Below are positions 1 to 28,454 of a stretch of 60,542 nt of DNA, piece by piece. Under the pieces are notes generated by a model. That model saw only the letters and a list, made by a program, of their open reading frames with translations, searched no databases and was not told the origin of the DNA. The DNA comes from Bacillota bacterium. Its GTDB lineage: Bacteria; Bacillota; Desulfotomaculia; Desulfotomaculales; JBFMEU01. Positions within the stretch are counted from its first letter, which is position 1; each line of letters starts with the position of its first letter. The position numbers were made by a program, and so were the translations under genes. Location of the stretch: NCBI GenBank assembly GCA_040753155.1, contig JBFMEU010000005.1, positions 1 to 60,542 on the forward strand, given 5' to 3'.

Positions 1-99
1 CGGTTTATCGTTTATCCATGGCGTTTCCGAAGTATGAGATATACGGTTATTCTGAATCCTGACTCCTGAATTCTGAATACCTGAATAAAACTAAATTAC

Positions 100-1794
100 T
101 CACATAAAGCAGCTGCTGCCGATAAATTCCCTGAGAATTGAATTCCTGGGCACCTCATACTCATCAATGGGCACAAAATAGCTCAGGAATTCCAACAGTC
201 GCCGGGCCTCGGCATACTCAGGCCGGTCAGGGGTGATTTCCGCCAGCAGGGGCTCGGCATAGGGCTTGAGCACCGCCAGCTCATAAATCTGGGATGAGTC
301 GAACATGATATCGGCAGTTTCCTGGAAGGGGAAAATATATTTTTCCTCCCCCCGCCGCACCGACGGCCACATCCGGATGGTTTCCAGGGCCGAGTAGCCC
401 CGGCTGCGGTTATCCCGGACAATTCGGCGCAAAATCCGCACGTCGGTGGTGGGTATCCGGTTATAGTTATCCAGGTTCAGCTGGGTAAGGGCGCTGACAT
501 AAATCTTATACTTCCGGCCTTTGGGAATGGAGCGGGTTAGCTTGTCATTCAGCCCGTGAATGCCCTCCACCACAATCAAATCCGACGGCCCCAGTTTCAT
601 CTTATGCCCGAGCCACTCCCTCTGGCCCGTCTTGAAATTAAAGGTGGGTATTTCCACCTCTTCCCCCTGGATTAATTTGGTCAGATGCTCGTTAAACAGG
701 GCATAGTCCAGGGCCTCCACGCTTTCAAAATCATAGTTGCCGTTCTCATCCAGGGGCGTCAGTTCCCGGTTGACGAAATAATTATCCATGGAAATGGGTA
801 CCGGGTGAATATCATTCACCCGCAGTTGGATAGAAAGTCGCCGGGTGAAGGTAGTTTTACCCGAAGAAGATGGCCCGGCTATCAGCACAATCCGGATTAA
901 ATCAATGTTATTGGCAATAATATCGGCCTTGCGGCTGATCTTTTTTTCGTGAAAAGCCTCGGCCACCCTGATAAACTCAATGGCCGACCCCGCGGCCAGC
1001 TTTTCGTTAAGCACAGTTACGTTGGGTATGTTAATGATCTTATTCCATTTTTTCGACTCAAAATATACGTTGGCCAACTTACCCTGCTCAAGGTACTCCG
1101 GCAGCGCCAGGGGTTCCTGCCGCCAGGGAAATTCCAGAATAAAGCCGGGTAAGTAAAACCGCAGCCGGAACACCTTTAAATACCCGGTGCTGGGAACCAT
1201 AGGGCCAAAGGCATAATCAATGAACCAGCCGCAGGTGTGGATGTCCACCAACTCCAGCTTGCGCTGCTTGACCAGGGCAATTTTATCCACCCGGCCCCGC
1301 TCGGCAAACAAGCGGATAAACTCCTCAGCCAGCACCTGCTGCTTGATTATGGGTTCATCGGCATCAACCGTCTCCCGCATCCGGTCTTCAATTTTGACTA
1401 TATCCGTCTCCTTGAGGGGGCGGTGATAAGTTATTTCCCCATAAAAACTATTGCCCAGGGAGTGCTGGACCAGGCATACGCTGCCGGGTAAAATTTCCCG
1501 CACCGACTTCACCAGCACTAAAATAAGGCTGCTGCGGTAAACCCGCATGCCTTCCTCGGTTTCCATGTCCAGGAACTCCACCGTACTGTTTTCCTCCAAC
1601 AACGTTTGCAAATCCCTGACCACGTTATTTACCTTGGCCGCCACCACCGGAGACTTGCGCTCAGCCTGATCATACTTAAGCAGGTCCTGCACACTAATGC
1701 CCCGGGACTTATGAAATTCACCACTGCCGGTTATATTAACGTAAATTATTTCCGGATCCGATGGGTGAACAATAAGGGGATTAAGTTTTTGCAT
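100..1794 (-). CDS. Uridine kinase-family P-loop protein with N-terminal ThrRS-like (TGS/SAD) domains
   Basis: Walker A GPSSSGKT, ISMDNYF, VEGIHGLN and RRIVRD motifs; N-terminal VAAKVNNVVRDL TGS-like segment. Confidence 0.85.
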   Translation of the reverse strand: MQKLNPLIVHPSDPEIIYVNITGSGEFHKSRGISVQDLLKYDQAERKSPVVAAKVNNVVRDLQTLLEENSTVEFLDMETEEGMRVYRSSLILVLVKSVREILPGSVCLVQHSLGNSFYGEITYHRPLKETDIVKIEDRMRETVDADEPIIKQQVLAEEFIRLFAERGRVDKIALVKQRKLELVDIHTCGWFIDYAFGPMVPSTGYLKVFRLRFYLPGFILEFPWRQEPLALPEYLEQGKLANVYFESKKWNKIINIPNVTVLNEKLAAGSAIEFIRVAEAFHEKKISRKADIIANNIDLIRIVLIAGPSSSGKTTFTRRLSIQLRVNDIHPVPISMDNYFVNRELTPLDENGNYDFESVEALDYALFNEHLTKLIQGEEVEIPTFNFKTGQREWLGHKMKLGPSDLIVVEGIHGLNDKLTRSIPKGRKYKIYVSALTQLNLDNYNRIPTTDVRILRRIVRDNRSRGYSALETIRMWPSVRRGEEKYIFPFQETADIMFDSSQIYELAVLKPYAEPLLAEITPDRPEYAEARRLLEFLSYFVPIDEYEVPRNSILREFIGSSCFM

Positions 1795-1975
1795 CAGTAA
1801 TCACCCCCGGCACTTACATGCTAGCAACAATTTCGCCGTAGCAGGCTAAAATCCTGCAACAACTCCATAGCTCCGATTTAATCTAAATTTTTCGTTAACA
1901 AAAAGGAATTATAAAAGCCGGCGCTGAAATAAGAACACTTGCAAATACCACAACTATCATAAAAGGAGGTTTTTT

Positions 1976-2632
1976 ATGTCAGATGTACCGCGGGGAGCAA
2001 TACTGCAGCGTGACAAGGAAACTTACGCCATAGTCCCCAAAACCTTGATGGGCCTGGTTACACCGGACATCCTTGAGAATATTGCCCATGTTGCCAGAAA
2101 GCATCAGATACCCATTATCAAGATTACCTCGGCCCAGAGGTTTGCCCTGGTGGGCATCAAGCCGGAGACCGTTGAAGATGTCTGGAACGATTTGAATATG
2201 GAGCAGGGCAAGGCGGTTGAGCTGTGCCTGCATTACGTTCAAGCCTGTCCAGGAACCGCCGTATGCCGCTTTGGAGTCCAGAACTCCCTGGGCCTGGGCC
2301 AAAAGCTCGACCAACTGCTGGGGCATATGGAAATGCCGGCCAAGGCCAAAATCGGGATCTCCGGGTGCCCCATGTGCTGTGGTGAAAGCTATGTCCGGGA
2401 CCTGGGTATTATGGGCAAGAAAAGCGGCTGGACCCTTATCTTCGGGGGCAACGCCGGCGCCAGGCCCCGGGTGGGCGATGTGATTGCCGAGGGCCTTACC
2501 GATGAGCAGGCCCTTGATCTGACCCAAAAGTGCTTTGACTACTACATTGCCGAAGGCAAGAAGAAGGAGCGCGCATCCAAGTTCATCGAACGCATCGGGC
2601 TGGAGGAATTCAAAAAAAATGTTCTCGGCTAA
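1976..2632 (+). CDS. Small nitrite/sulfite reductase-like 4Fe-4S (siroheme-type) protein
   Basis: ACPGTAVCRFG and KIGISGCPMCC motifs; AGGAGG RBS. Confidence 0.8.
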   Translation: MSDVPRGAILQRDKETYAIVPKTLMGLVTPDILENIAHVARKHQIPIIKITSAQRFALVGIKPETVEDVWNDLNMEQGKAVELCLHYVQACPGTAVCRFGVQNSLGLGQKLDQLLGHMEMPAKAKIGISGCPMCCGESYVRDLGIMGKKSGWTLIFGGNAGARPRVGDVIAEGLTDEQALDLTQKCFDYYIAEGKKKERASKFIERIGLEEFKKNVLG

Positions 2633-2648
2633 CGGCACAGGATTTACA

Positions 2649-2680
2649 ATGACCGCGGGAGTCTCTTCCTGCGGTCATTT
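2649..2680. terminator. Hairpin between convergent genes, probable intrinsic terminator
   Basis: ATGACCGCGGGA-gtctct-TCCTGCGGTCAT followed by T residues. Confidence 0.6.
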
Positions 2681-2749
2681 ATTGGGGCAGCAGTGCCTTA
2701 CCTTCAAACGTGTAATCAAATCCCACAACTTTAATACCATTATATGCCA

Positions 2750-4039
2750 TTACCTGCAAGTGGTACCTGAATTTCCCCTATCCTGGTCCCGGCCGGCCAT
2801 AATCAGCCCCCGGCCCAGCCAGGCAACCCCCACCAGCCCTATGGCGGCCCCCAGGGCCAGAGCCGCCGGTGAACCCCAGAGCCGGGAAACGGCGCCGCTT
2901 AAAAGGCTGCCGAAGGGCATCATCCCAACAAACAAGAGGAAATAGACACTCATAATCCTGCCCCGCAGATGGTCCGGCACCCGCAGCTGGATAGAAGAGT
3001 TCAAGGAGGCCGTAAAGGTAATCATCGCCCAGCCGGTAACCAAAAGCAGAAACAGGGACAGGGGAAACAGCCGCACCGGGGCCAGCATAATCTGGGAAAC
3101 ACACATCACCAGGGCGCCCGCTATAATCAGCGCCCGCTTGGGTTCCCAGCGACTGAAATAAGCCAGGCTGACGGACCCGATCAGCGCCCCGGCGCCCAGG
3201 GCCGACATCAACAGCCCAAAGCCCCGGGGTCCCTGGCCCAGCACTTCCCGGGCAAATACCGGAATCAGCACATGAAAATTCATGGCAAAAACGCTCATCA
3301 CACCCATCAAAGCCAGGCCATATTTAACAAAGGGCGTTTTCATTATATATTGCAGGCCTTCTTTTATTTCCCCCAGCATGCTGCCGCCGTTACCCTGTTT
3401 TTTTACAACCTCACCGTTAAGCCTGATCAACCACAGACCTGTCAGAACAGCCACAAAGCTGGCCGCGTTAAGCAGAAAACAGACCGCCAGGCCCACCATA
3501 CTGATAAGAATACCGGCCACCGCCGGCCCCACCACCCGGGCCCCGTTAAATACCATGGCATTAAGGGCTATGGCGTTCATCAGATCCTGGCGGCCCACCA
3601 GCTCAATGATCAAGGATTGGCGGGCGGGCATATCCAGGGCATGGGCAAGCCCCCCCAGGGAAGCCAGCACCAGCACATGCCAGTACTGCACCACCCCCGT
3701 CAGGGTAAGCAGCCCCAGGGCCAGGGCCAGCGCCATCATCACACTTTGGGTCACCAGCAGCAAACTGCGCTTGGGAAAGCGGTCGGCCAGCACCCCGGTA
3801 AACAGGGAGAACAATAGAATGGGGGCAAACTGCAGTGTGCCCACCAGCCCCAGCAAAAAGGCAGACCCGGTTAACTCCAGAATCAGCCAGGCCTGGGCCA
3901 CGGCTTGCATCCAACTGCCCACCAGAGAAAACAACTGGCCCAGCCAGAACAGGCGAAAATTCCGGTGGCGCAGGGCAGACCAGGCCCCGGACAGATTTTT
4001 TCCACTTTTCAGGGCCGCTTCCGCTTGTATTCCCTTCAC
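2750..4039 (-). CDS. MFS transporter
   Basis: About 12 hydrophobic segments; GVLADRFPKR motif A; ALRHRNFRLFW N-terminus. Confidence 0.9.
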   Translation of the reverse strand: MKGIQAEAALKSGKNLSGAWSALRHRNFRLFWLGQLFSLVGSWMQAVAQAWLILELTGSAFLLGLVGTLQFAPILLFSLFTGVLADRFPKRSLLLVTQSVMMALALALGLLTLTGVVQYWHVLVLASLGGLAHALDMPARQSLIIELVGRQDLMNAIALNAMVFNGARVVGPAVAGILISMVGLAVCFLLNAASFVAVLTGLWLIRLNGEVVKKQGNGGSMLGEIKEGLQYIMKTPFVKYGLALMGVMSVFAMNFHVLIPVFAREVLGQGPRGFGLLMSALGAGALIGSVSLAYFSRWEPKRALIIAGALVMCVSQIMLAPVRLFPLSLFLLLVTGWAMITFTASLNSSIQLRVPDHLRGRIMSVYFLLFVGMMPFGSLLSGAVSRLWGSPAALALGAAIGLVGVAWLGRGLIMAGRDQDRGNSGTTCR

Positions 4040-4263
4040 CTCCGGGATAATAGACCCTTGATATTTAAATAAAGGGAAAATCCACTATACCCTTGAAGTT
4101 ATTATACTATCAGGGATGGTGATTTTCAATGATTGCCACTTTTTTCTAAATTTACGGCTTGGAAGTGGGTATTTCACAACAGTGCGCAGCTTATGAACAA
4201 GCGGCAAGCATCCGTCCTCAAGCAAATGTATTTTCAAGACAGGGGTTAAATGGAGAGATCTGC

Positions 4264-6444
4264 GTGAGGGATATTCTTTTTGCCAAAAAAACTTCGGGCC
4301 ACCCCATTTATCAGACCCTGGAGGGGCACACCGAGGATTGTGTGGCCGCCCTGGGCTGCTATCTGCGCCACCACCGGCAGCAGGCGGCAAGGTTGGCCTG
4401 GGACATCGATTTAGCTTACCGGGATTTTTGCCACATCTTATACCTGGCAGTCTTTTTGCATGACCTGGGTAAGGCCACCGCAGAATTTCAGGAACACATG
4501 GCCAAAGAAACCCTGGAACGGCGCCTGGCGCACACTTTTTTCGGCCTTCCCCTGGTTAAAACCGACCTGCCCCCGGAGCACAACCTGCTGGTCAGGGCCC
4601 TGGTCCTGTCCCACCATACCCAGCCCTATGACGACATGTACTTCAGCCATGAGCTGGCACCGGAGGTAAATTACCAGTGGGACGGCATCAGGGAATTCAT
4701 GAGCCGTTACGAGGAGTTCCACGCCAGGTGGCTGGCCGAGGAATTCAGCCTGGCCTACCAGCCGCTGCTGGAAAACAACAACCCGGCTAAAGGCCCGCGC
4801 AGGGATCACATCCTGCCCGAGGTGCAGCGTTTAAGGCGGCAGATTCACCGCCTGGAACCCCTTTATCGCACCAAGGCCCTTTATTGCGCCACAATCACCA
4901 TCCTGAAGCAGTGCGATCAACTGTCCAGCAAAACCTTTAACCTGTATCCGGCCAGGCCGGGACAAATTTACGGCTCCCTGTGGAACCGTGTCCACCCGGG
5001 CCATCCGGCCGGCCAGGACAAAAAGTCCCACCCCGCCCCGGCGCCACAGCAGGCTGGCAGGGACACCAGCCAGATCACCGCCAGGGTGCTGGAGGTCGCC
5101 CGGAACCGGGGACGCCAGAAATTAATCTGGGTAACACCCGGCCAGTTGGCCTCTATCAGGCGCTGGCGGGACCTGACCGCTCTGTTTGGGGAAGACCGGG
5201 TGGGGCTATTACATGCCCTTTCCTATTTTCCAGTTCCCCGGGTATTCTTCAAGGAGCCGGACAACAACAAAGGCAGCCGGGGTAATACCGCCCACCTGAA
5301 GTACGGCGATCGCATCTTCTCCCGGCCGGTTACTGTAACCACCATCGACCATCTGATTTTCAGCCTGGCCCACGGCTGCAGGCAGGCGGACTACGCCCTG
5401 GGGAATGTCCTTGACGCGGCGGTCATCTTTGACGGCAGGCCGGAGGATTATCCCGGACTGAGCGGCTACTGGCAGGAAGCAGTCCAAATTTTTAACAACC
5501 TGAAAGTACCCTGCTACTATTATGACCATGTTTCAGACCTGCTCGAACCGGCCTGTAAAAACAAGACTGCCGCCGGCATTTTGCCCCGGGACACGTTTAC
5601 CGTCCAGGTAAAGGAAGTCGCCCGGGAAATTGATACCAGCCAGGTGGCAGCTTACGCTGCCGGCGAAGCCACCCAGGTTGTCATCGCCGGCAGCTTGACC
5701 CGGGCCCAGGGGCTGTACCTGGCCCTGCAAAAAAAGCTGCCCGGCGTACCGGTACTGCTTTATCACACCCTGTTCACCCGCCACGACAGGTACATTAAGC
5801 CCGGCAGTCTGGTCAGCCGGCTGGAGGCCTTTGGCCGGCAGTCCGGGCCGTGGGTTGTGGTGGCCACAGATGCCCTGCTGGACGCGGCAGCAATTAGCTG
5901 CGACATTTTACACCTGAGCCGGGCCCCGCTGCCGGCCCTGGCAAGAAGACTAACCCTGCTGGGCCAAAGCAGGCAGAGCCCCGGCCTGGTTTACCTGTAT
6001 GGCGATCCCGCCGGCAGCAGTCCGGGGGCCGGGCTTCCGGAGACCTTTATCTACCCCCCGCACATCCTGGCCCGGCTGCAAAAGCTGCGGGACCAAATAA
6101 AGCCCCGGCCCACCAACCTGGAAGAAGTAATGAACCACTGCACAGTGTTCGGTTACTCCCCCCCCGAGGTTAGATATGCCGGGGAAGCAAGCAAGATTAA
6201 TTTGTGGCCCTTCGAGGAGCGCCTGATGGACGTTATACCAGCCGTATTCTGGCGTCCCCAGCTTAAGGACGATCCGGTGGCCGCAGAGCAGGTGACCGTT
6301 AAGGTGCCACTGACCTGGCACGGCAGATTTCCCCACCTGTTCCGGGAAATTGAGCACCCCCTGGAGACAATTATTATTTGTCACCTGCCCTATCACCTCC
6401 GGCTGGGGCTGCTGCTCCGGGAGGGGCAGGATATAGAGTTCTAG
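4264..6444 (+). CDS. cas3: Stand-alone Cas3-like protein: HD nuclease plus degenerate SF2 helicase
   Basis: GTG start after GGAG; HD motifs HTED, LHDLGKA, AH, SHH, CD; Cas3 helicase remnants VGLLH, PVTVTTIDHL, LLYHTLFTRHDR, VVVATD; no Walker A and DExH replaced by DGRP. Confidence 0.8.
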   Translation: MRDILFAKKTSGHPIYQTLEGHTEDCVAALGCYLRHHRQQAARLAWDIDLAYRDFCHILYLAVFLHDLGKATAEFQEHMAKETLERRLAHTFFGLPLVKTDLPPEHNLLVRALVLSHHTQPYDDMYFSHELAPEVNYQWDGIREFMSRYEEFHARWLAEEFSLAYQPLLENNNPAKGPRRDHILPEVQRLRRQIHRLEPLYRTKALYCATITILKQCDQLSSKTFNLYPARPGQIYGSLWNRVHPGHPAGQDKKSHPAPAPQQAGRDTSQITARVLEVARNRGRQKLIWVTPGQLASIRRWRDLTALFGEDRVGLLHALSYFPVPRVFFKEPDNNKGSRGNTAHLKYGDRIFSRPVTVTTIDHLIFSLAHGCRQADYALGNVLDAAVIFDGRPEDYPGLSGYWQEAVQIFNNLKVPCYYYDHVSDLLEPACKNKTAAGILPRDTFTVQVKEVAREIDTSQVAAYAAGEATQVVIAGSLTRAQGLYLALQKKLPGVPVLLYHTLFTRHDRYIKPGSLVSRLEAFGRQSGPWVVVATDALLDAAAISCDILHLSRAPLPALARRLTLLGQSRQSPGLVYLYGDPAGSSPGAGLPETFIYPPHILARLQKLRDQIKPRPTNLEEVMNHCTVFGYSPPEVRYAGEASKINLWPFEERLMDVIPAVFWRPQLKDDPVAAEQVTVKVPLTWHGRFPHLFREIEHPLETIIICHLPYHLRLGLLLREGQDIEF

Positions 6445-6448
6445 CCAC

Positions 6449-6610
6449 TTAAACAACTTTTTTAATTAGCGCCTGCTCCAGCATTGCTTTAAGCTCACTA
6501 ATTGCCCGCTCTAGAAGCTCAATTTTCTTAACTGCCTGAGAGGGTGCGCAGTTAGCAAAATAGTCGCAGTTGTTACATTGATCCCTGTAGGCCATCGGAC
6601 AACCGGTCAT
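6449..6610 (-). CDS. Small Cys-rich protein with C-terminal coiled coil
   Basis: ATG at 6610 after G-rich RBS; MTGCPMAYRDQCNNCDYFANC...IELLERAISELKAMLEQ. Confidence 0.6.
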   Translation of the reverse strand: MTGCPMAYRDQCNNCDYFANCAPSQAVKKIELLERAISELKAMLEQALIKKVV

Positions 6611-6727
6611 TTTATACCCCCCTTCACCATTACTGATTACCGTCAACCCTGTACTCTGGCAAACATGGCGTATACCACTTAGCTTGCGCTAATCGCCCCC
6701 TCGTACCGGCTCAAGCAACCCTGCCTA

Positions 6728-6790
6728 TTGAACGAGACTTCATTCAGAGGGGGATTCAACCCCCTCTGAATGTTAGCCGAGTCCAGTGAT
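6728..6790 (+). repeat. Dispersed palindromic element family A, short 63 bp form
   Basis: TTGAACGAGACTTCATTCAGAGGGGGATTCAACCCCCTCTGAATGTTAGCCGAGTCCAGTGAT, recurring at 20366, 31874 and 34793. Confidence 0.9.
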
Positions 6791-6977
6791 GAACCCATGC
6801 TTGCAGGAGAATACTTAAACAAACACAAAAGGCCCGTACCGTTTCCCAACCGAAAACGCGCAGGCCTCATTGCCATTCACCGTCACCATTGACGTAATAT
6901 TCTTATAATACTATTATATTGCCCCGGAACATAATTGACAATAGCAATGGCTTGTTATTTTGCCATGTAAAAACATC

Positions 6978-7760
6978 TTACCGGCCCTTGAAATTTGGCT
7001 TTCTCTTTTCCACATAAGATAACACGGCCTCTTTTTTGTCCTCAGTGTTCAGGCAGTAGGAGGCCGAGAGCTCTTCAAACATCAGCCCGGCGGTAAGGCT
7101 CACCTCGCTGGACAGGTTAATGGCCCGCTTGGCAAATCTAACCGCCAGGGGGGCGTTGCCGGCAATTTTGGCAGCCAGCTTAAAGGACTCCTCCATCAAC
7201 TTGTCCCGGGGCACAACCAGGTCCACCATGCCCAGTTCCAGGGCCCGGGCGGCGCTGTAATTATCGCCGGTCAGAATGACCATCTTAGCCCGGGCCGGAC
7301 CAACCAACCGGGTCAGTCGCTGCGAGCCGCCCAGGTCCGGGGCCAGGCCCAGGCGCACCTCGGGAATGGACAGCACCGCGGTCTCGGCGGCCACCCGCAG
7401 ATCACAGGCCAGGGCCAGCTCCAGGCCGCCCCCGACGGCGGCGCCGTTAATGGCGGCGATAACCGGGCGGGAATGCCTCTCCCAGCGGTTGTTTATTTCA
7501 TGAAACCAGCCCAGGGAGCGCTGCGCAAAGCTGCCATCGGCCGCGCCCAGCACTGATAAATCCATGCCGGCACAAAAGGCCCTGTCCCCGGCCCCGGTTA
7601 AAATAATGACCTTGACGGTATCATCATGATGCAGCTCCTGCTGAACCTGCTCAAACTCCCGGTATAGCCCGGCATCCATGCAGTTGGCCTTCTTTGGCCT
7701 GTTGATGGTTATAACCGCAATGCCGTCCTGCCGGTCCAATAGAATCTCCTGATAACTCAT
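6978..7760 (-). CDS. Enoyl-CoA hydratase/isomerase family protein
   Basis: AFCAGMDL, IAAINGAAVGGGLELALACD and PEVRLG crotonase motifs. Confidence 0.95.
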   Translation of the reverse strand: MSYQEILLDRQDGIAVITINRPKKANCMDAGLYREFEQVQQELHHDDTVKVIILTGAGDRAFCAGMDLSVLGAADGSFAQRSLGWFHEINNRWERHSRPVIAAINGAAVGGGLELALACDLRVAAETAVLSIPEVRLGLAPDLGGSQRLTRLVGPARAKMVILTGDNYSAARALELGMVDLVVPRDKLMEESFKLAAKIAGNAPLAVRFAKRAINLSSEVSLTAGLMFEELSASYCLNTEDKKEAVLSYVEKRKPNFKGR

Positions 7761-7807
7761 GCTAATTACTCCTCTCCCGAATACAGGTTATTTTTTCTAC
7801 TCCCCTC

Positions 7808-7844
7808 ATATTATCACGCTTAGCAAAATGAATAAAGATTCATT
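7808..7844. repeat. 37 bp direct repeat A, copy 1, containing palindrome AATGAAT-N4-ATTCATT
   Basis: ATATTATCACGCTTAGCAAAATGAATAAAGATTCATT identical at 23652-23688. Confidence 0.9.
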
Positions 7845-8092
7845 TAAGGACCACAGAACTGGCCATACTACCGGGGCCGACCTACAAAACTTACCCTCAA
7901 AGCTGGCCCCGGTGGTGTGGCCGACATACACAGAATTGCCCCCCCACCAGGCCTGCATCCGGACAAGGTGCGACCGGCACTGACCCCAGAGCTCAGCCCC
8001 AGAGGCCGGGCGCACTTTAGATCCCGATACCTTTTCCCGCTTGCTCAAGCCAGCACCTTTGCCAGTGTCGCCACTTACTTTTTCCCATGCTC

Positions 8093-8311
8093 TCATAACA
8101 AATCAACCTCCTCATGCATTTCAAAGAAAAGGTATCCAATATCAAGATTACGGAAAAAAGTCTCTCTGATGGCAATTAGCTCACCCATTAAAAACTCAGT
8201 CCGGCCACTCATACGATTGCTAAAAGCCTTCTCAGAAATTCCGATGGCAACCGCGATCTGCTTACCGGTCAAACCCTGGCGAGCCATTTCTGCTTTGAGA
8301 TTTCTAAACAT
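8093..8311 (-). CDS. Small XRE/Cro-like HTH regulator
   Basis: LKAEMARQGLTGKQIAVAIGISEKAFSNRMSGRTEF; AGGAGG RBS. Confidence 0.85.
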   Translation of the reverse strand: MFRNLKAEMARQGLTGKQIAVAIGISEKAFSNRMSGRTEFLMGELIAIRETFFRNLDIGYLFFEMHEEVDLL

Positions 8312-8455
8312 TATAAGCCCTCCTGTCTCTCAAATTATTATTGACAATCTTCCAGGGAGGGTTTAGTATTTAAACTGTAAAAAGGCAATAGAAAACCCGC
8401 CCTTGGGGTAAGGGGTTTTGAGAAGCCGACAACTCTTGGCGGGGTAGCGGCTTCT

Positions 8456-8625
8456 TTAATTTTTACTATTCTTTTGTTCTAACCATTTTAGGACCTGTTG
8501 CTTATCAAACCTTACACTTTTGCCATGCTTTAAAAAGGCATCCCCTCTTTTCTCCAGCGAAGGGCCGTTGCCGGGCTAATCTTTAGCCATTGGCAAAGTT
8601 CCTGCTGAGTTAAAAATTACCCCAT
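8456..8625 (-). pseudogene. Excisionase-like HTH pseudogene
   Basis: Manual translation MG*FLTQQELCQWLKISPATALRWRKEGMPF, then a frameshift, then KHGKSVRFDKQQVLKWLEQKNSKN*. Confidence 0.7.
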
Positions 8626-8939
8626 ACTTCACCCTCTCATATACAATCATATCCTATCATTCATCATCATATATAAACATTAATTTACATTTATGTTTAT
8701 ATATGCTATATTATAACATATGCCTAAACCAAAAATAATCTAGCCATCATAATGCCGCCCTTGTCCCCGTTAACATCTCCAAAAATGCGGCCTTATTGCT
8801 TTCCGGCTATCCACTATTGGGATATAATAACTATAATTAAACTGCAAAGCAAAGCACATTGCCCATCATGGCACCGTTAAAGGAGGTTTGAAACAGCTAC
8901 AAAATAATTGGACATAATTATATAAAAATGATAAATCCA

Positions 8940-8969
8940 TTGACACCAAACATGTGTACATGTTAAACT
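8940..8969 (+). promoter_or_regulatory. Sigma-A-like promoter of tnpA with a palindrome in the spacer
   Basis: TTGACA-N18-TAAACT with extended TG; AACATGTGTACATGTT in the spacer. Confidence 0.55.
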
Positions 8970-8989
8970 GTTGGCAGGAGATGATGTCA

Positions 8990-9637
8990 ATGGAAAAATT
9001 ACTGACCACTAATCAGTTAGCTAAACTATTAAATGTTTGGCCTGAAACATTGCGCCGGTGGGAAAGAGAAGGAAAATTAAAACCTTTGCGCACACCCGGC
9101 GGCCATAGGCGCTATAAAGAATCACAAATAATGGCTTTAATTGGCGAAGAGATAACTGTGAATGAAACAAAACAATGCGCTATTTACGCCCGCGTATCTA
9201 CTGCCAAACAGGCTGAAGCCGGGAATCTCCAGCGGCAAAAAGAACGCTTAATAGCTTATGCGGTAGAAAAAGGTTATCAGGTTAAAGCAGTATATACCGA
9301 AATCGCATCCGGTCTGAACGAAAACAGGCGGGAGCTTGCTAAATTAGCCAAAACAGCCACAAAAGGCGAAATAGACGTAATTGTCATCGAATATAAAGAC
9401 CGGTTGACCCGTTTTGGCTATAAGTATTTGGAGCAGTATTATCGGTCATGCGGTGTTGAAATCGACATCATAGAATTGGACGAAGAAAAATCGCCCCAAG
9501 AAGAACTGGTAGAAGACATGATCGCCATTGTAACCAGGTTTTCCGCCAAGATATATGGCAAACGAGGCGGGCGTGTGGCAAAAAAGCTAACTGAATTTAT
9601 TGAGCAGGAGGTGGAGGCCTACGAAAACCACGGTTAG
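8990..9637 (+). CDS. tnpA: IS607-family transposase (MerR-like HTH plus serine recombinase)
   Basis: TLRRWEREG...RTPGGHRRY HTH; YARVST catalytic Ser; DRLTRFG; EELVEDM. Confidence 0.95.
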   Translation: MEKLLTTNQLAKLLNVWPETLRRWEREGKLKPLRTPGGHRRYKESQIMALIGEEITVNETKQCAIYARVSTAKQAEAGNLQRQKERLIAYAVEKGYQVKAVYTEIASGLNENRRELAKLAKTATKGEIDVIVIEYKDRLTRFGYKYLEQYYRSCGVEIDIIELDEEKSPQEELVEDMIAIVTRFSAKIYGKRGGRVAKKLTEFIEQEVEAYENHG

Positions 9638-11075
9638 AGGCATCATCCTCCAGTTAACGGACGTTCAGAAAGACTTCCTCGACAACCTGATGGACTGCTA
9701 TTGCGCTGCCGTAAGGTGGTCATTTAAAAGATTACTGGACGGTTGGAAAACCCAGGACATACGACTATCCGCCCAAAGCAAATTTAACCTAAATTCCCGC
9801 CAATCCAATGATGCGGTTCATGACGCCCGGGCAACAATAAAATCACAGATCGAGCTGGTTAAACTAAATCACGCAGGCGCCGCAAAGAAAGTGGAATTTA
9901 CCCAAAAGCGCCTGGCGAAAGCCAGGTCTCCCGGAAAAAAGGCCAAGTTAAAAAGACGCCTGGACAAAGAAGAAAGGAAATTGACATTTTGGCAGAAACA
10001 CCTTGATGCCGGCACATTTCCGCCAGTGGTGTTTGGCGGTAAAAAACTATTCCATGAACGCTGCAAGGGTAACATAACCCGTGAAGAATGGCGCCAAGCC
10101 CGGAGCAACCGCTACCTTTCCAGAGGTGACAAAACCAAGGGCGGCAACCTGAACACAAGGCTACACACCAAAGACGGCAACATCTACCTGGACATAGTCG
10201 CAGAACCGGTCGAGACTGAAAAGTCCGTCCGGTACAAACGTATCACAGTCCCGGTCTACCTGGCTCATAAACCTTCCAAGAAAACCGGGGAAATCAACGG
10301 GCGCAACTACCGGCAAATGGTTCTGGACCATCTCAAAACCGGCAGCGCCTATCAGATAGAGCTCCTTCGTGAAAACGGTCGTTATTACGTCCACGTTACC
10401 ATCGAAGAAGAAATCCCGATCCCGGTTATCGCCCATAATGGAGCAATCGGAGTTGACACCAACCCGGACGGACTGGGCCTAGCCCGCACAGATTACCTGG
10501 GACAATTCAAAGAAAGCCTTTGGTTGTCACAGGGCGAGTGGACATATGCCCGGAGCAACCGGCGGGACAACCTGATCGGCGAGGCCGCGTCACTGGTGGT
10601 GAAAATGGCGAAACAGCTGAATTGCGCCCTTGCTGTTGAGGATCTGGAGTTAAAAAACGACAAATCCGTCACAGCCAAGTTCAACCGGATGAGTCACGGC
10701 TTCGTTTGGTCGAAATTTTTGCAGGCCATAGAGCGCAGAGCCGCCCGCGAGGGAGTGCCCCTGGTAAAAGCGCCGCCGCCGTTTACCTCAGTCATCGGCA
10801 TATTGAAATATCAACAGCAGTACGGGATCTCAAACCACGAAGCAGCGGCGTATACCATAGCCCGGCGCGGCCTGGGATATGGAAATGAAAAGGTGCCTAA
10901 AAAGTTGGTGCAAAAGTACGTCAAGAAAAAAGAGGCCTTCGCGTTGTTAACCAACTGGAAGCAATGGAGTTCAGTTAAAAAAGCGGTGATTGCCGCAATA
11001 AAAAAACAAATCAAACGGGAGGTGAAAGGCCTGGTTTCCTGGCAGCACCACAGAAAACAACTGATAGCGGGTTAA
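9621..11075 (+). CDS. tnpB: TnpB-related RNA-guided nuclease, zinc-finger-less variant, with ACG at the expected start
   Basis: RuvC-I IGVDTN, RuvC-II AVEDL, C-terminal TSVIG..KY..SNHEAAAYTIARRG; GGAGG upstream of ACG 9621-9623; overlaps the tnpA end. Confidence 0.85.
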   Translation, partial: TKTTVRGIILQLTDVQKDFLDNLMDCYCAAVRWSFKRLLDGWKTQDIRLSAQSKFNLNSRQSNDAVHDARATIKSQIELVKLNHAGAAKKVEFTQKRLAKARSPGKKAKLKRRLDKEERKLTFWQKHLDAGTFPPVVFGGKKLFHERCKGNITREEWRQARSNRYLSRGDKTKGGNLNTRLHTKDGNIYLDIVAEPVETEKSVRYKRITVPVYLAHKPSKKTGEINGRNYRQMVLDHLKTGSAYQIELLRENGRYYVHVTIEEEIPIPVIAHNGAIGVDTNPDGLGLARTDYLGQFKESLWLSQGEWTYARSNRRDNLIGEAASLVVKMAKQLNCALAVEDLELKNDKSVTAKFNRMSHGFVWSKFLQAIERRAAREGVPLVKAPPPFTSVIGILKYQQQYGISNHEAAAYTIARRGLGYGNEKVPKKLVQKYVKKKEAFALLTNWKQWSSVKKAVIAAIKKQIKREVKGLVSWQHHRKQLIAG

Positions 11076-11459
11076 ACCCTTGGCCATAAAGTTTGCGGCG
11101 CGGCACAGTACACGCAGTGAAAGGCTGTTGTCGCGAGTAACGACCAGGCGGTGGGTAACACCCCCTTCCGGGCAGAACTGGACGTCAGACATCAGGCGTC
11201 AGACATCGGACCTTTGGGGTCAGGCTAACGGGGTCAAAAAACCCGAAAGACAAACCACAAAGAAATCCGACGGCCGACGCCCAACGACCGACGACTGTAA
11301 AGCCAGGCGGCGTTTGAAGCCACCCGGAATATGGACGAAAGTCCATAGCTCAGCAGTTGAATCCTGTGACACTGCCTCCCGTTAGTCGGCGGGAGAGAAA
11401 ACTAAATATATCTGGATTATCCTGTATAAATCAGATTTCTTTAGTTTTCAGAAACCAGG
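11017..11459 (+). ncRNA. Predicted TnpB omegaRNA/right-end RNA scaffold
   Basis: Lies between the tnpB 3' end and the IS right end; closing stem 11030-11038/11451-11459; hairpins TATGGAC-GAAA-GTCCATA, CTCCCG..CGGGAG and GAAAACTAAA..TTTAGTTTTC. Confidence 0.7.
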
Positions 11460-11468
11460 TCTCCGCCA

Positions 11469-11696
11469 ATGCCGCGCAAGTTTAAAGTTATCCTTTCCTG
11501 GGATAATGAAACGCAGGTCTATGTTGTAACCGTTCCCGCATTGCCGGGCTGCGTTACTCAGGGGAAAAACCGTAAGGATGCCCTGGAGCGGGTCCAGGAA
11601 GCTATAACGGGCCATATTGAAGCCCTGAAGCTGATCGGCCAACCGGTACCGCAGGGAGATGTTGAGTTTGCCGAAGTGCAGGTAAGCGTTTCATGA
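11469..11696 (+). CDS. hicB: HicB-family antitoxin, short form without DNA-binding domain
   Basis: YVVTVPALPGCVTQGKNRKDALERVQEAI. Confidence 0.9.
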   Translation: MPRKFKVILSWDNETQVYVVTVPALPGCVTQGKNRKDALERVQEAITGHIEALKLIGQPVPQGDVEFAEVQVSVS

Positions 11697-11971
11697 CCAG
11701 GATGCCCAGGGTCACCGGCAAGAAGGTTGTATCCGCCCTCAAAAGCGCCGGCTTTATCGTGGTAAAAGTAACCGGTAGCCATCACCACCTGCACAAGCCA
11801 GGCAGTAGACTGGTGACCGTACCTGTTCATTCAGGGGAGACTACTAAAGATGAAATCCCTGTATTACAAACCCTTTGTGAAGCTATTTTGGAATACGTAT
11901 ATCAGGCCCCCGCACTGGTTGAGCGGATGGCTCTTAGAATAGAAGAGTTAAAATTAAAGACAAAGGATTAA
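11693..11971 (+). pseudogene. hicA: HicA toxin N-terminus fused to an unrelated C-terminal fragment
   Basis: AGFIVVKVTGSHHHLHK..VTVPVH HicA core; after GET the sequence becomes AT-richer and non-HicA (LCEAILEYVYQAP). Confidence 0.7.
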
Positions 11972-12053
11972 CTCCATCCCGGCCACAACGCCGGGATTTG
12001 CTTTTCCTGGCCTTTTATGGAGCATTCAAGCCCCCCATTTACTTGCCGCCTAA

Positions 12054-12725
12054 TTACAGCCGCTCCAGCGGGCTTCTGCACGGCCAAATTCGCCACCGCT
12101 GGAGAATTTCAAACCCAACAACGTTGATATACTGAACCCCCTGCATCAGGAAATCCTTTACAACATTGGCCGTGGGATACCGCTCTTCATCGGGGGGTGA
12201 AGGACAAAGCCGGCTTGTCAAGGCCGAAGGTAAAGCTGTCTTGATACCCCCCCCATTCTCTCGTCGATAGAAGTCCGTCCCCTTGGAAGTCTTGCCCAGC
12301 AGCCGGCGTGGTGTTAGCTTGGGGCTAAATTCAAGATCTTTGCCTGCCGGCGCCCACTTCTTTAAAAACTCCTTGAGGATCTCATCATCTATGCGTACGC
12401 CCAATTGCTCATCTTCGGCCACAGCCAGGCGGTATAGCAATAGTTTGCCCTGCTGGGAATCTATAACGTTACCCATGTCCAGCCACAACTCAATTTCAAT
12501 GGGGTCACCCTGCTTCATAAATGTAAGGTCACGGAATTCAGGTGCCCGTTTCTCCACAGCTTTCCGGGGCCCGTGTTCAAGGCAGTCCTTAACAAACTGT
12601 AGGGCATCCAGAAAAGTGCTTTTACCGCTGGCATTTGGCCCGACCAGGACATGGAATCTGTTCAGCGACAGATTCTTCAGGAATTTTATAGCCTTATAGT
12701 TTTTGACAGTTATGCCGGCAATCAT
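12054..12725 (-). pseudogene. Truncated duplicate of the ATPase at 21504-22730
   Basis: 12126-12737 nearly identical to 22131-22742; compensating +2/-2 indels; lacks the signature/Walker B half; ATG overlaps the hsdR stop (ATGA). Confidence 0.9.
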
Positions 12726-15700
12726 AGATCCACCCCCCTGCTATCATTCTGACACATCAATTTAGTTTGCTCCATCACAACATCCACTGCTTTAGCCGTT
12801 TTATCAGGCGGGTAGCCGTATTTTTTAAGCAGCCGCTTAATGATCATTTTCATTTTTGCCTGGACGCTTTCCCGGATAGCCCAGTCAACGCTAATGTTAT
12901 TTTTAATGGCCATGGTTAGATCCCTGGCAATTTGCTTGAGGATTTCATCACCCATAACCTCCCTGGCCGATTCATTGTCCGCCAAGGCATCATAGAAAGC
13001 TAACTCGTCCGGGGTAAGCCCAGTTTTTTCACCCCGTTTTTCAGCTTCACTGATTTCCCTGGCAAGCTCAATCAGCTCTATGATGACCTGGGTTGTCTCC
13101 ACAGCCCGGTTTTGATACTTTCTGATGGCCGCCTCCAGCATTTCTGAAAATTTCCTGGACTGTACCAGGTTGCGCCTGGAGAAAGTTTTGATGCTGCCCT
13201 TTAACAACCTGTTTAACAGCTCAACAGCCAGGTTTTTCTGCTTCATGCCTTTAACTTCATTGAGGAACTCATCAGAAAGAATGGCTATATTAGGCTTGGA
13301 AAGGCCAACCGAACCCAGAATATCCACCACTTCATCGGAGGATATGGCTTTGGAAATCAGCTGGTTGAGCTCATTGTCCAGCTGGGAGGTGGTTTTCTTT
13401 TTACTGTCATCGCTAATCATTTTAACCAAACAGGCTTTGACTGCTTTATGGAAACCCACTTCAACATTGAGGCTTATGGCAATATCAGTTGTGGCGCACA
13501 GGGAATAGGCCCTGGCCATTTCGGTGACCAGCTTGATATAGTCGTTCTTCCTGTCCTCACGGAGCCCGATGATATAATCCATAGTCTCTGCAATCGCCTG
13601 CATTTTAACACTGGGCTTGCCGGTGAAGAATTTGCTGTAGTCGTGGCCGTGGAGCAGCTCTTTAATCAGGTCGTACTTCTCCAGGAGAACCTTAGACGCC
13701 ACTTCCGTATCCACACCGGTGGTCTTCCGGTCACTTTCCGTATACTGGGCCAGGGCTGCCTTCAGGTTTTCGGCAATGCCGATATAATCAACCACCAGGC
13801 CGCCCTGCTTATCCTTGAAGACCCGGTTCACCCTGGCAATGGCCTGCATCAGATTATGGCCGCCCATGGGCTTGTCGATGTACATGGTGTGCATGCTGGG
13901 CACATCAAAACCGGTGAGCCACATATCACGCACAATGACCAGCTTTAGTCCGTCATTCCGGTCTTTCATTCGCCTGGCCAGGGTCTCCCGGCTGGCCTTT
14001 GTCCCGATAAATGGCTGCCAGTCTGCGGGGTCAGATGAACTGCCGGTCATAACCACCTTGATCTTACCGGCCATTAATTCATCACTGTGCCAACCCGGGC
14101 GCAGGGCAACCATCTCTTTGTACAGGTCGACGGCAATCCTGCGGCTCATGGTTACGATCATGCCCTTACCGCCTTCGTTCTCCTGAGCCTGCTCCCGTTT
14201 TTCAAAATGCTCCACGATATCCCTGGCAATTTGTTTAACCCTTTGCTCGGCGCCGACGATGGCCTCCAGCCTGGCCCATTTGCTCTTGAGCTTTTCCTTT
14301 TGGCTTTGCTCCTGGTACTCGGTTATTTCCTCATACTCAGTGTCCACCCGGGGCTTCATTGCTTCCGGCAGCTCCAGTTTGGCCAGCCTGCTTTCGTAAA
14401 AGATCTTAACCGTTGTGCCATCTTCAACTGCCCTGGTCATGTCGTACACATCAATATAATCCCCGAATACGGCGCGGGTGTTTTTATCGGTAAGTTCAAC
14501 CGGCGTCCCGGTAAAACCAATGTAAGAGGCATTGGGCAGGCTGTCCCGCATGTACTTGGCATAACCGTATTTAACATCGGCCTCTGTTTTACCCCTGACC
14601 ACTTCCGCCCCAAAGCCGTACTGGCTGCGGTGGGCCTCGTCAGCAATGACAATGACATTTTTCCGGTCGGTGAGCACCATGTTCCGGGCATAGTCAGGGG
14701 ATTTTTCGGCAACCTTTAAAGCTTCATAAGGCTGTGTGCCCTCTTTGATTTCATTAGAAAACGGTGCGAACTTATGAATGGTTGTGAAGATGATGCCGCC
14801 GCTGGTCCGGCTGCTCAGCAGTTCCCTTAAATGCTCCCGGTCCCCGGCCTGCACCGGCGTGCTTCTTAATAAGTCCTTGCTTTTGAGGAAAGTGCTATAC
14901 AACTGGTCATCTAAATCATTGCGGTCCGTGATGATCACTATGGTTGGATTCTCCAGCTCTTCACTGATCACCAGTTTCCCCACGTAGAACACCATGGACA
15001 AGCTTTTGCCGCTGCCCTGGGTATGCCAGATGACACCGATCCGCCGGTCCCCACTCTCCATGGTGGCCCGCCGGGTACTGGCCACAGCTTTATTCACCGC
15101 ATGGTATTGATGATACCCGGCCAGAATTTTTATCGTATCTGTTCCATCGCTCTGGAAAAGGACAAAGTGCTTAATGATGTCCAGAAAGATGTCCCGCTGG
15201 AACATACCCTTGATTAACACTTCCAGCTGGGGAATGAACTGGGGTGCCACATCGTCACCGTCAATGGTGCGCCAGGCCATAAACCAGTCTTCATCGGCAG
15301 TCAGGGTGCCGGCCCGGGCATTAATCCCGTCACTGGTGACCATAAAGGAATTATAAGTGAACAGGGAGGGGATGGCCGTCTTATAGGTCTGCAGCTGGTT
15401 ATAAGCATCGGTGATGTCTACATTTTCATCACTGGCGCTTTTTAGCTCGATGACCACCAGGGGAATCCCATTAACCAAGACAATCACATCCGGGCGCTTT
15501 TCCACGCCATGCTCCACCACGGTGAACTGGTTGGCCACTACGAATTCATTATTCAGGTAGTTATCAAAGTCAAAAACATAAGCCTTGGCAGTCCGGTAGC
15601 CCCCGCCGGCCTGTTTCACCTGAACATCGATGCCGTCGGTGATCATCTTTTGGAAGGCCTTGTTGTTCATGATCAGGCTGGGGCTCTGGGGCATTATGAT

Positions 15701-15925
15701 TTGCCTGAAGGCCTCCTCAATGGCTTCATCCGGAAGCTTGGGGTTGATTCTCACCAGGGCTTCTTTTAACCTTTCGGCCAGAATAACATCGCCGTAATCT
15801 TCCCGTTCCGGATACTCTCCATCCGGTGCAATGTCCGGGGCAAAGATAACTTCATAGCCCAATTCCTCAAACCATTCCAGGGTTGCTTCTTCTAAATCAG
15901 ACTCGTAGAAGTTGCTTTTGGCCAT
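12722..15925 (-). CDS. hsdR: Type I restriction enzyme R subunit
   Basis: RPD..VIELK nuclease motif, [30 protein letters not shown]. Confidence 0.97.
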
Positions 15926-17158
15926 CTATTGCACCTCCTCAATGGGAACTCGGATTTCGCCAGACATTAGTTTTGGTAATAAGGAATTCCTAATCTCTTT
16001 TAGCGTTTTATTTTGCACACTAATTTCTATCATTTGTTTAAACAGGGGATTCATAATATTACTCAATATCTTCATATCAGCATCTTTCGGAATCAGCACC
16101 TTGGACTCAGTGAGATGACTTCTCTTTATATGTCCCATTGTTGTAGCTTTATCTTTAGCAATGGCTTTAAAGTTATCAAGATGTTTTAATGTCCATAAAT
16201 AAAAATACCACTTTTCATACTTCTCTGAGGTAACCTTAAATAAATGTTGGTTCAATCCTCCATGGCCACCTGTCCAAATTTTAACCATTAGTGTTCCCGA
16301 CCAGGAGAATATTACGTCTCCATCTTGAACAATATACTGTTCAGGTATATTAATACTTGCCTTATCACTATTACCATCTGTAAAACCTTGATTTAATTCT
16401 TTAATTTTAACCACCGGCAAAAACTCTTCTGTCTCAGGCCGATATTTTTGCATTGCAAGTCCATTAAGGTAGTCTGCAACACTATCTAAACTGTCTACTT
16501 TCCACCCTTTAGGTATCATTCCTAACTCGCTATCTTCAAACTCTCCATCCTGAAATGGCTCAAAATCCACAAACCAGCTTTTAAAAATAGCCTGGGCCAT
16601 TTCCTCAAGGGTTTTGTTGATACGGTTGTTGAGTTCAATTTTATTGTCAATAGCGGACAGAATTTTTACAATTTCTTGTTGATACCTTTTTGCAGGAACT
16701 TCAATTTCTAAATTTTTTATAGTATTAATATCAAACTTGCCAGCACCTATACTTGTGTGCTCAAGTTTATTAGAAAGAAATGTTTTATTTGTTTGAAACC
16801 AATAAAAAAGAAAATACGGCATGATAATATTAGAATCAACTTCAATGGCTTTAATATCTTGATTAAATGCTACTGGATGATCAACAATTCCTATTGGAAT
16901 ATTATTAAAAAGGCCGCTTCCACGAACCAATAAAAGGATGCTGTCTTTTTCAGCAATCCTCGAACCCCTATCAAGACCTTTCTTAGTTATTTTAATATCT
17001 GAATCGTATATTCTTCCATCTTTAAGGGTCTTAGCACTAATCCATGGTATAGATCCACCCCAGTATTCTTTAACAGACTTTGAAGGAGTGCCACCTGACC
17101 GCCAAACACTAATCTCTCCAATTCTATATATTGTTGATCTTTTAGATATCAAAACCAA
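15926..17158 (-). CDS. hsdS: Type I specificity subunit with two TRDs
   Basis: GGTPSKS..YWGG, central helix [29 protein letters not shown]-terminal [10 protein letters not shown]; low GC. Confidence 0.95.
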
Positions 17159-18623
17159 TCGCCCCCAATCGATGCTTAATTTCCTCCTCTAACTTACGAG
17201 ATTTAGCAAACAGCTCAGCCAGTTCTCCTGTCAGCCGGGTCATCTTTTCATCGAAGGGCTCCCCGTCATCTACGGCATCTTCAATTCCCACATATCTTCC
17301 CGGGGTCAGGATGTACTCATGATCTCTTATCTCTTCAATTGTTGCGGATTTACAAAAGCCCTGCACATCCTCATATTCCTCTTTACAGTCTCGCCAGCTA
17401 TGGTAAGCAGCACAAATTTTCTTAATCTCCTCATCGGAAAGCTCGCGGTGCTTGCGGGTCACCATGGCGCCCATCTTGCGGGCGTCAATAAAGAGGATTT
17501 TATCGTTCCGGTTATCTCTTTTTTTAGCAAGAAACCAGAGGCATACCGGAATGGTTACATTGTAAAAAAGGTTGGGCGGCATGGTGACGATGCAGTCCAC
17601 CAGCCCCGCCTCAATGATGTTTTTTCTGATCTCCGCCTCCGCCTTTGTAGAGGTGCTCATGGATCCATTGGCCAGGACAAAGCCGGCCACACCCTTGGGC
17701 GATAACTTGCTGATGATGTGCTCGATCCAGGCGTAGTTGGCATTATTAGCCGGCGGTATACCATACTTCCAGCGGGCATCATCCTGGATCAAGGTGTAAT
17801 CGCTGACGTTAAAGGGAGGGTTGGCCAGGATATAGTCGGCCCGCAAGTTTTTGTGCAGGTCATTGCCAAAGGTATCGGCATCCCTTCCCCCCAGATTGCC
17901 GTCAATGCCGCGGATGGCCAGGTTCATTTTGCAAAGACGCCAGGTGGCCGCGGTGTATTCCTGTCCATAGATATAAATATCATCTTTGCGGCCCTGGTGC
18001 TCCTCCACAAACCTGGCCGACTGGACAAACATGCCCCCTGACCCGCAGCAGGGGTCGTAGACCCTGCCCTTATAGGGCTCGATCATGCCCACCAGCAGCT
18101 TTACGATGGACGGCGGTGTGTAGAACTCCCCCTGGCTGGAACCAAACTTGCCCAGGAAGTATTCGTAGACCCGGCCCAGGATATCCTGGGCTCTGGCCTC
18201 TTTATTGCCCAGGTTAAAGGAAAACAAATCAATGAGTTCTCCCAGCTTGGTTTTGTCCAGTTCCGGCCTGGCGTAATTCTTGGGCAGTACCCCTTTCAGG
18301 CTTTTATTCTCCCGTTCTATGGCCATCATCGCTTCGTCGATAATTTGCCCGATGGTGCTTTGTTTAGCGTTTTTTTTGATAAATCCCCACCTGGCGCCGG
18401 GCGGCACAAAGAAAACATTTTCTGCCACATAGGCGTCCCGGTCTTCTTCAAACCCTTCGCCCTCGGCCACCAGTTCGTTGTATTTTTCCTCAAAGCTGTC
18501 GGAGATGTATTTCAGGAAGATCAGCCCCAGGACAACATCCTTATAATCGGATGGTTGAATGTTACCCCTTAGCTTGTCCGCCATTTCCCACAATTTGTTT
18601 TCAAACTCCAAGTTTACGGCCAT
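17142..18623 (-). CDS. hsdM: Type I methyltransferase subunit
   Basis: [31 protein letters not shown]. Confidence 0.97.
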
Positions 18624-20218: not shown

Positions 20219-20365
20219 GGTTATCCTCCTTTCTGCGGTTCTTTTTGACAACTTAACTATATATTAGACTATTTAGTATGTCAATACTAAATAGTCTTTA
20301 TGCCCTTATAGCCAGAAGCACCCCTATCAGGATGCTTCTTTATGCTTGCCTAAAGAAATCGGCCC

Positions 20366-20496
20366 TTGAACGAGACTTCATTCAGAGGGGGATTCAACCC
20401 CCTCTGAATGTTAGCCGAGTCCATACTGGACTTAACCGCCCTTTGAAACCCGCCGCCTACAGAGGCGGGGGTCTTAGGGCGGATTAGTTCAGTGAT
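20366..20496 (+). repeat. Family A element, long 131 bp form
   Basis: Short module plus an extra 68 bp fold-back TACTGGACTTAACCGCCCT...AGGGCGGATTAGTTCA. Confidence 0.9.
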
Positions 20497-20498
20497 AA

Positions 20499-20569
20499 AA
20501 ATAGGCATCTGGCAAACGGCAAAATTTTAGGTTCAGGCAGTCAATTCAGAAAGATTATTGACTGTCGTG
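20499..20569. repeat. 71 bp direct repeat B, a copy of the nadE 3' end and downstream sequence
   Basis: 69/71 identical to 24218-24288, which includes the last 5 codons of nadE. Confidence 0.9.
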
Positions 20570-20610
20570 ATATATGTGCAGTAGCAATTTATTAATAAAC
20601 CTCTGGTGAA

Positions 20611-20830: not shown

Positions 20831-20877
20831 ATAATAGCCAGGAAGAACAGGATACCCGATTGAGTAGAGAATAAGAA

Positions 20878-28439: not shown

Positions 28440-28454
28440 TACTTTCCCTCCCAA

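Follow-up and report, generated by a model that had tools for sequence, protein, structure and literature searches.

Does a cas3 gene that stands apart from other CRISPR-Cas genes, with its nuclease site whole and its ATP motor dismantled, still serve CRISPR interference, or has it been taken into other work of the cell? The question is raised by a gene at positions 4264 to 6444, on the forward strand, of a 60,542-nucleotide stretch from a Bacillota bacterium of the order Desulfotomaculales (GenBank assembly GCA_040753155.1, contig JBFMEU010000005.1, positions 1 to 60,542). The whole stretch is called the window here, and the assembly G000. An earlier note, made from the sequence alone, had proposed three roles for the product: a nickase acting with a remote Cascade, a dominant-negative CRISPR regulator, or a CRISPR-independent ssDNA nuclease.

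Domain architecture of the Cas3 derivative

The frame at 4264-6444 (+) is open throughout and encodes 726 amino acids, in line with the uninterrupted frame of about that length reported before. It starts with GTG, with GGAG about 8 nt upstream, and the close homologues P0003 to P0005 begin no more than 2 residues from this start in the alignment. The product (P0001) passes the NCBIfam model of the Cas3'' HD nuclease (TIGR01596; 59.7 bits against a cut-off of 43.45) and scores above the cut-off of the Pfam model PF18019, and it fails the NCBIfam model of the Cas3' helicase (TIGR01587; 62.8 bits against a cut-off of 102.45). Its AlphaFold2 model (pLDDT, 79.9; pTM, 0.84) shows a complete Cas3 fold, HD-RecA1-RecA2-CTD, and falls below a pLDDT of 50 at residues 247 to 264, the expected place of Walker A. 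All top Foldseek matches of the model are Cas3 proteins, a VIA comparison with 8zns gave a Z of 20.4 and an rmsd of 4.8 (570 aligned), and a search of the ESM Atlas returned ordinary Cas3 clusters only. By its HD ligands and by its fold, the protein is a member of the Cas3 family by descent.

Eighteen helicase-dead family members were compared column by column with 43 intact Cas3s. The HD nuclease domain (residues 1-228; 4264-4947, +) retains all the metal ligands that the earlier note had listed: H22, H66, D67, H90, H117, H118, and D218 align to those of the intact Cas3s and, together with K70, Q76, S222, and F225, are present in 18/18 helicase-dead members. S222 was matched by pattern as the essential serine of DxxxS, after the available part of PMC11417383.

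The ATP motor is lost throughout the family. Between the HD and RecA1 domains lies a variable, near-neutral, and poorly modelled linker (residues 229-265; 4948-5058, +), which in the G000 lineage takes the place of the Q motif and of Walker A; at about residues 247 to 266 it is rich in Pro, His, and Gln, much as the replacement of Walker A had been described. Members from family f10 retain a P-loop-like GSGR, with which they may still bind nucleotide, and the segment is lost in the G000 lineage. The Q-motif Gln occurs in 2/18 members and the Walker A Lys in 1/18, in a row that is poorly aligned, with Arg in the Lys column in 13/18. The RecA1-like domain (residues 266-425; 5059-5538, +) carries DG at Walker B. 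Here DExH is replaced by DGRP in P0001, as the alignment confirms, the Glu has become Gly in 18/18 members, and the His is found in 0/18. Motif III (SAT), correctly called absent, is deleted, its Thr occurring in 0/18 members, as does the motif Ia Thr. Motifs IV to VI are eroded in the RecA2-like domain (residues 426-580; 5539-6003, +), with the motif V Thr in 6/18 and the Gln, Gly, and Arg of motif VI in 0/18. The loss of motif VI had been recognized, but its register, ARRLTLLG, was one residue off: RRLTLLGQ is the segment that aligns with QRGGRLNR. Motif names, and the ATP and nucleic acid binding roles that go with them, are assumed from general knowledge of SF2 helicases. Motifs Q, I, II, III, and VI are intact in 43/43 rows of intact Cas3, and by its SF2 ATPase motifs the protein is not a canonical type I Cas3 helicase-nuclease.

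Outside the nuclease domain, the non-catalytic Cas3 motifs and the C-terminal domain persist, as had been noticed. In RecA1, P292, Q294, TxDH (360-363), H370, G371, D376, and G380 are present in 18/18 members, and the linker helix and C-terminal domain (residues 581-726; 6004-6441, +) hold a conserved block, TNL...C.L.G.SP.EVR...W...DV.P...W. Four invariant residues, G391, W648, A296, and P133, are specific to the family. In one subclade (G039, P0008) RecA2 is largely deleted, and the HD domain, RecA1, and the C-terminal block are retained. The residue roles that we ascribe to P0001 are presumed, in part from PMC11417383.

Distribution, descent, and selection

A homologue search with P0001 found 16 proteins, and 8 besides the query share the dead motor. 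A profile of 15 helicase-dead sequences (E ≤ 1e-40) located the gene in 13 of the 162 genomes of the class, that is, in 10/10 genomes of family f10, 2/2 of f14, and 1/1 of f1 (G000 being its sole genome), and in 0/149 genomes of the 17 other families. In a sample of 401 genomes from across the phylum, the sole other match was an intact Cas3. In a search of 1.84 billion representatives the top four matches belong to the helicase-dead family and an intact Cas3 ranks fifth; beyond the top four, motifs were checked in 37 long and 15 mostly partial rows among the 150 matches listed, among them P0109, a family member present as a C-terminal fragment. A scan of a genome collection with P0001 alone gave no match, and a metagenome scan gave at least 4 distant loci at 25-32% identity. 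Named carriers are Desulfofundulus australicus, D. thermosubterraneus, D. thermobenzoicus, Desulfovirgula thermocuniculi, Desulfotomaculum copahuensis, and Desulfolucanica intricata. The gene is a stand-alone chromosomal one, away from CRISPR loci, in several families of spore-forming anaerobes. A phage-borne decoy of the anti-CRISPR kind was considered, but neither 50,697 phage records nor a pattern scan of IMG/VR gave a match; the fixed chromosomal position of the gene speaks against a decoy borne by a mobile element.

The helicase-dead proteins form one clade with full support (SH 100 in a FastTree tree of 61 rows; 100/100 in an IQ-TREE tree of 25 rows). Nearest to it among intact proteins are the type I-B Cas3s of Cas7/Cst2/DevR operons (SH 93 in the FastTree tree), a grouping that is less sure in the 25-row IQ-TREE tree. 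These relatives (L075; P0011-P0015 and P0020; PADLOC Cas3b PDLC01762) are 27-30% identical to P0001 over the full length and share its HD-RecA1-RecA2-CTD layout and signature blocks. They have intact ATP motifs and, where the DNA was seen, belong to cas8-cas7-cas5-cas3 operons with a Cas7 that scores above the type I-B Cst2/DevR cut-off, whereas the helicase-dead family has no ATP motifs and stands alone. The excerpts of PMC10333696 warn of a non-Cas helicase misannotated as an orphan Cas3, an error that the HD domain and the tree rule out for P0001. The large subunit of the sister type I-B operons is apparently split into ORFs of 380 and 107 aa without an NCBIfam match (L075:4749-6211), and archaeal relatives (L078, L079, L081, L083, and L086) have an extra unannotated ORF of 205-242 aa between cas5 and cas3.

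In an RpoB tree of 29 genomes the three families that carry the gene do not group as sisters, and either transfer or an old origin followed by losses is therefore required. The gene tree has the same order as the RpoB tree, (f14, (f1, f10)), with RpoB support for that split of only 83. Each of the three families has the gene on the downstream side of a lytS-lytR-nnr-(alr)-(amt)-(nadE) block, in convergent orientation to it. This ancestral landmark, nadE-amt-alr-nnr, is at 24274-31462 (-) in the window, where nadE is 18 kb and nnr 23 kb from the gene. Elsewhere alr adjoins the gene (G028 and G013), nadE is 0.2-2.5 kb away (G039 and G117), and nnr is adjacent (L071) or at a distance of 6 kb (L072), 9.5 kb (G009), 38 kb (G058), or 51 kb (G049); these distances do not cover G025, G114, and G116, owing to contig ends or fetched stretches that were too short. 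The shared facing of the block points to old vertical inheritance, and gene order favours such inheritance with losses over transfer. No remnant of the gene was found downstream of nnr in 10-20 kb stretches of 7 non-carrier loci (best E, 0.27). The window's order lytS-lytR-acpS-nnr-alr, in which we take the third gene to be acpS, is conserved in f14 (L041:3502-8812 and L036:11283-16517). The 735-aa nadE ORF of G039 (L042:11202-13409) aligns to the window nadE in three pieces and the 605-aa nnr ORF at G052:C1:1731556-1733295 aligns in two, which implies in-frame insertions.

Ratios of dN/dS were calculated by the Nei-Gojobori method for 13 pairs, of which six, all from f10, are unsaturated. In these six the ratio is 0.16-0.22 for the HD domain, 0.14-0.26 for RecA1, 0.28-0.58 for RecA2, 0.28-0.46 for the C-terminal part, and 0.35-1.13 for the linker. 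The two closest pairs have whole-gene ratios of 0.37 and 0.45, based on few changes; the deepest pairs, including the one with G000, are saturated, and values for its own lineage, whose closest homologues (P0003-P0005 and P0167) entered the analysis as protein only, are unreliable. Over the whole length, the gene has ratios of 0.29-0.39 in three f10 genomes, against 0.03-0.22 for its neighbours, 0.03 for rpoB, and 0.18-0.30 for five pairs of intact cas3, which places the relaxed constraint outside the HD domain. The nuclease domain is constrained as tightly as that of a working Cas3, and the remainder is relaxed but not neutral. Because the orthologues share the same dead motor (18/18) and an invariant HD site and evolve under purifying selection, the view of a repurposed rather than a decaying protein stands.

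Genomic surroundings and CRISPR-Cas loci

The neighbours had been called housekeeping genes, and this holds for the immediate ones (MFS and enoyl-CoA hydratase) but not from 2.5 kb downstream, where an IS607-like element and then a type I restriction-modification cluster follow. The element (8954-11075, +) encodes a MerR-HTH serine resolvase of 227 aa and then a TnpB-like ORF of 491 aa with a weak Cas12f1-like TNB match (E, 0.027); its flank, 11076-11500, recurs on many contigs. The restriction-modification cluster (12054-22751, -) comprises hsdR, hsdS, hsdM, and a second HsdS-domain protein of 545 aa, is flanked by two AAA_21/AAA_15 ATPase genes, and sits between the Cas3 derivative and nadE. 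Both the element and the cluster are likely later insertions between the two genes.

Two dispersed repeats of about 60 bp border the gene. One, a palindromic intergenic repeat at 6728-6790, has about 190 blastn matches in the assembly, several more of them within the window, and its bin has very high contig depth in the metatranscriptome run X1. The other, at 4182-4242, has 16 other blastn matches and lies directly upstream of the start codon, where it may affect the promoter. Rfam has no match in the window. A sigma-A-like promoter (TTGxxx, 17-18 nt, TAxxxT) was seen by eye upstream of 10/10 f10 copies, and no plus-strand sigma-70-like site was found upstream of the window gene. SOS control is ruled against by the lack of LexA-like boxes upstream in 13/13 carriers. 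On the opposite strand, a conserved motif AGGAATT...GAAAA precedes a divergent HIT-like gene in most f10 loci (L037-L040, L042, and L073) and resembles a sigma-H-type promoter. The gene is present in run X1, whose contigs, however, span the whole of window positions 1-19000 (30/30 bins); this makes DNA carry-over possible, so that presence does not equal expression.

As had been stated, the window holds no cas5, cas7, or cas8 and no array: no cas family besides P0001 was found by Pfam among its 35 proteins. In the whole G000 assembly (2.75 Mb; 91.6% complete, so that CRISPR loci can be missing) there was no array in a simple exact-repeat scan, no cas1, no second cas3, and no match to the Cas5, DevR, Cas7, or RAMP families, and tblastn with 13 Cas proteins from related operons gave no match. 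No type I locus with its own cas3 was found in this assembly; an intact cas3 is present in 12/12 other carriers, which often hold several type I systems. Such co-occurrence says little, since intact cas3 is found in 124/162 genomes of the class. Among the 13 carriers, DevR-type Cas7 occurs in 8, PF05107-type Cas7 in 9, and a match to the Cas7 of the sister operon in 4 (28-38% identity); no Cas7 family is common to all, and hence no single Cascade family tracks the gene. Genomes retain the gene whatever Cascade they carry.

ORF lists around 11 orthologous loci, inspected by eye, show no cas genes, and the Cas5 and Cas7 matches of other carriers lie on different contigs or at least 33 kb off; in G039 a Cst2/DevR-type operon is 34 kb away on the same contig. 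A complex prediction for the G039 protein (1-660) with the G039 Cas8 (1-335) scored 0.00 against a mark of 0.32, a result that counts neither for nor against an interaction. With no cas8b, cas7, cas5, cas6, or array linked to it, the gene is not part of a type I-B CRISPR-Cas system. That the gene stays fixed while its possible partners change is understood more easily if no Cascade is obligatory; a promiscuous role in trans is the less likely alternative.

Candidate functions

Across the family, the HD site is intact and the ATP motifs are gone, in a gene under purifying selection at a fixed chromosomal position. Of the three proposed roles, the CRISPR-independent ssDNA nuclease appears to fit best. 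What has been retained is the catalytic site with the domains that surround its entrance, which suggests a domesticated ssDNA nickase, independent of ATP and Cascade and with a role in the host; we put the chance of this at about one half. A descendant of a type I-B Cas3 would have lost its ATP motor, left the CRISPR operon, and been retained under selection. Its HD domain, judging by residue conservation, would still cut ssDNA in a metal-dependent and ATP-independent manner, and the dead RecA1 and C-terminal domain could form a passive gate that lets ssDNA in and restrains stray cutting. Candidate substrates are gaps, flaps, displaced R-loop strands, and incoming ssDNA, and the lack of translocation would give local nicks instead of shredding. 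The available text of PMC11417383 reports that isolated Cas3 cuts ssDNA efficiently without ATP and that this requires the DxxxS serine, and that of PMC8001533 describes an active site gated by loops of HD and RecA1. The most likely job in the cell would be maintenance of the host's own nucleic acid or removal of foreign ssDNA without a guide. A substitute for a missing host nuclease was considered, but RNase HI and exonuclease VII (XseA) are each present in 13/13 carriers and no obvious gap is filled. Against a lone nickase stand the weaker ssDNA cutting of a helicase-motif mutant of NlaCas3 (in the same part of PMC11417383), the lost motif Ia and largely lost motif V contacts with nucleic acid, the intact type I systems of 12/12 other carriers with G000 only 91.6% complete, the loss of the gene from most families of the class, and the relaxed constraint outside the HD domain.

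Cas3-Cas8 pairing is subtype-specific, and this counts against an accessory that any resident type I Cascade recruits in trans to nick the displaced strand, so as to back up interference or supply priming with no shredding. We consider such an accessory unlikely: the gene keeps one chromosomal site while cas loci vary between genomes, no Cas7 family is common to all carriers, and G000 has none of the cas genes sought. In its favour are the intact cas3 systems elsewhere in the other carriers, the operon 34 kb away in G039, the conserved C-terminal domain, for which PMC11417383 cites a link with affinity for Cascade in type I-E, and an engineered helicase-dead Cas3 that, in PMC8753164, nicks in a Cascade-dependent assay. 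The dead helicase could also be a scaffold for an HD site that acts on RNA or, as a phosphohydrolase, on a small nucleotide. HD domains are general phosphohydrolases, and the family has invariant residues of its own; in f10 the gene and a HIT-like gene are divergently oriented, and in several genomes it adjoins an NAD-dependent epimerase-like gene, both labels being presumed from sequence. An ATPase-independent, RNA-related activity of Cas3 is on record in the excerpts of PMC7074321. A changed substrate is nonetheless improbable, as those neighbours are not common to f1 or f14, and K70, Q76, S222, and the RecA1 motifs are as in DNA-cutting Cas3.

It is very unlikely that the protein is a brake that binds Cascade or an R-loop and competes with the real Cas3 to limit self-targeting damage. 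A full fold without a motor would suit a brake, as would the several type I systems of many carriers, but a decoy needs no catalytic site and HD is the most constrained part, so that the dominant-negative regulator fits worst of the three roles; a constant Cascade partner is also missing, and G000 has none that was found. Decay of an orphan from a lost CRISPR locus is largely refuted. Long branches, linker ratios of up to about 1.1, a subclade with RecA2 deleted, and the loss of the gene from most families might suggest it, but the frames are open in 13/13 genomic copies (672-823 codons), the HD ligands are invariant at 33-63% identity, dN/dS is well below 1 in each folded domain, and the gene is kept in every genome of three families.

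Known proteins offer partial likenesses to the proposed host nickase. The type I-A stand-alone Cas3'' (PDB 3s4l and 7tra_Q) is likewise an HD nuclease without a working motor of its own. That subunit is separate and has an active Cas3' as its partner within a CRISPR locus, whereas in P0001 the dead helicase is still fused and there is no locus. The engineered nCas3 of Zymomonas type I-F (K458A, D608A, and R887A in motifs I, II, and VI), with HD intact, nicks without shredding (available text of PMC8753164), but it consists of artificial point mutants working with their own Cascade, whereas motif loss here is natural and without a linked partner Cascade. Staphylococcus aureus DinG, eukaryotic XPF, and AddB, as treated in the excerpts of PMC3270479, combine a nuclease with an inactive helicase module. 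They share with P0001 the design of a nuclease steered by a non-unwinding helicase-like module; the nucleases are unrelated, and S. aureus DinG still hydrolyses ATP, whereas P0001 has no ATP site.

This is a real, conserved family of Cas3 derivatives that is apparently undescribed. A search of open-access PMC and bioRxiv full text found no description of it, although large supplementary tables of cas genes, which like subscription papers lay outside the search, could list it. The available parts of a 2025 classification (PMC12669027), a 2022 exaptation review (PMC8730458), and PMC10910872 mention cas3 loss and HD-active CAST variants, and no stand-alone helicase-dead Cas3 appears in them. Databases label the members CRISPR-associated Cas3, so that CRISPR counts for this group would come out too high. 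The family shows which Cas3 parts matter without the motor, namely HD, RecA1, and a C-terminal block, and offers natural nickase-like scaffolds, one without RecA2. Non-CRISPR jobs of Cas3 have long been suspected from in vitro and over-expression work (available text of PMC7074321). Such roles can be put to a natural test in a conserved family that would not translocate, lies off-operon, and still has its nuclease site; the gene is found in cultured strains. There is, in our estimate, an even chance that Cas3 was domesticated once, early in this order, as a guide-free and ATP-free host nuclease, a core gene of three families and largely thermophile-encoded; on that same reading its work would be genome maintenance or innate clearing of ssDNA, with no CRISPR involvement.
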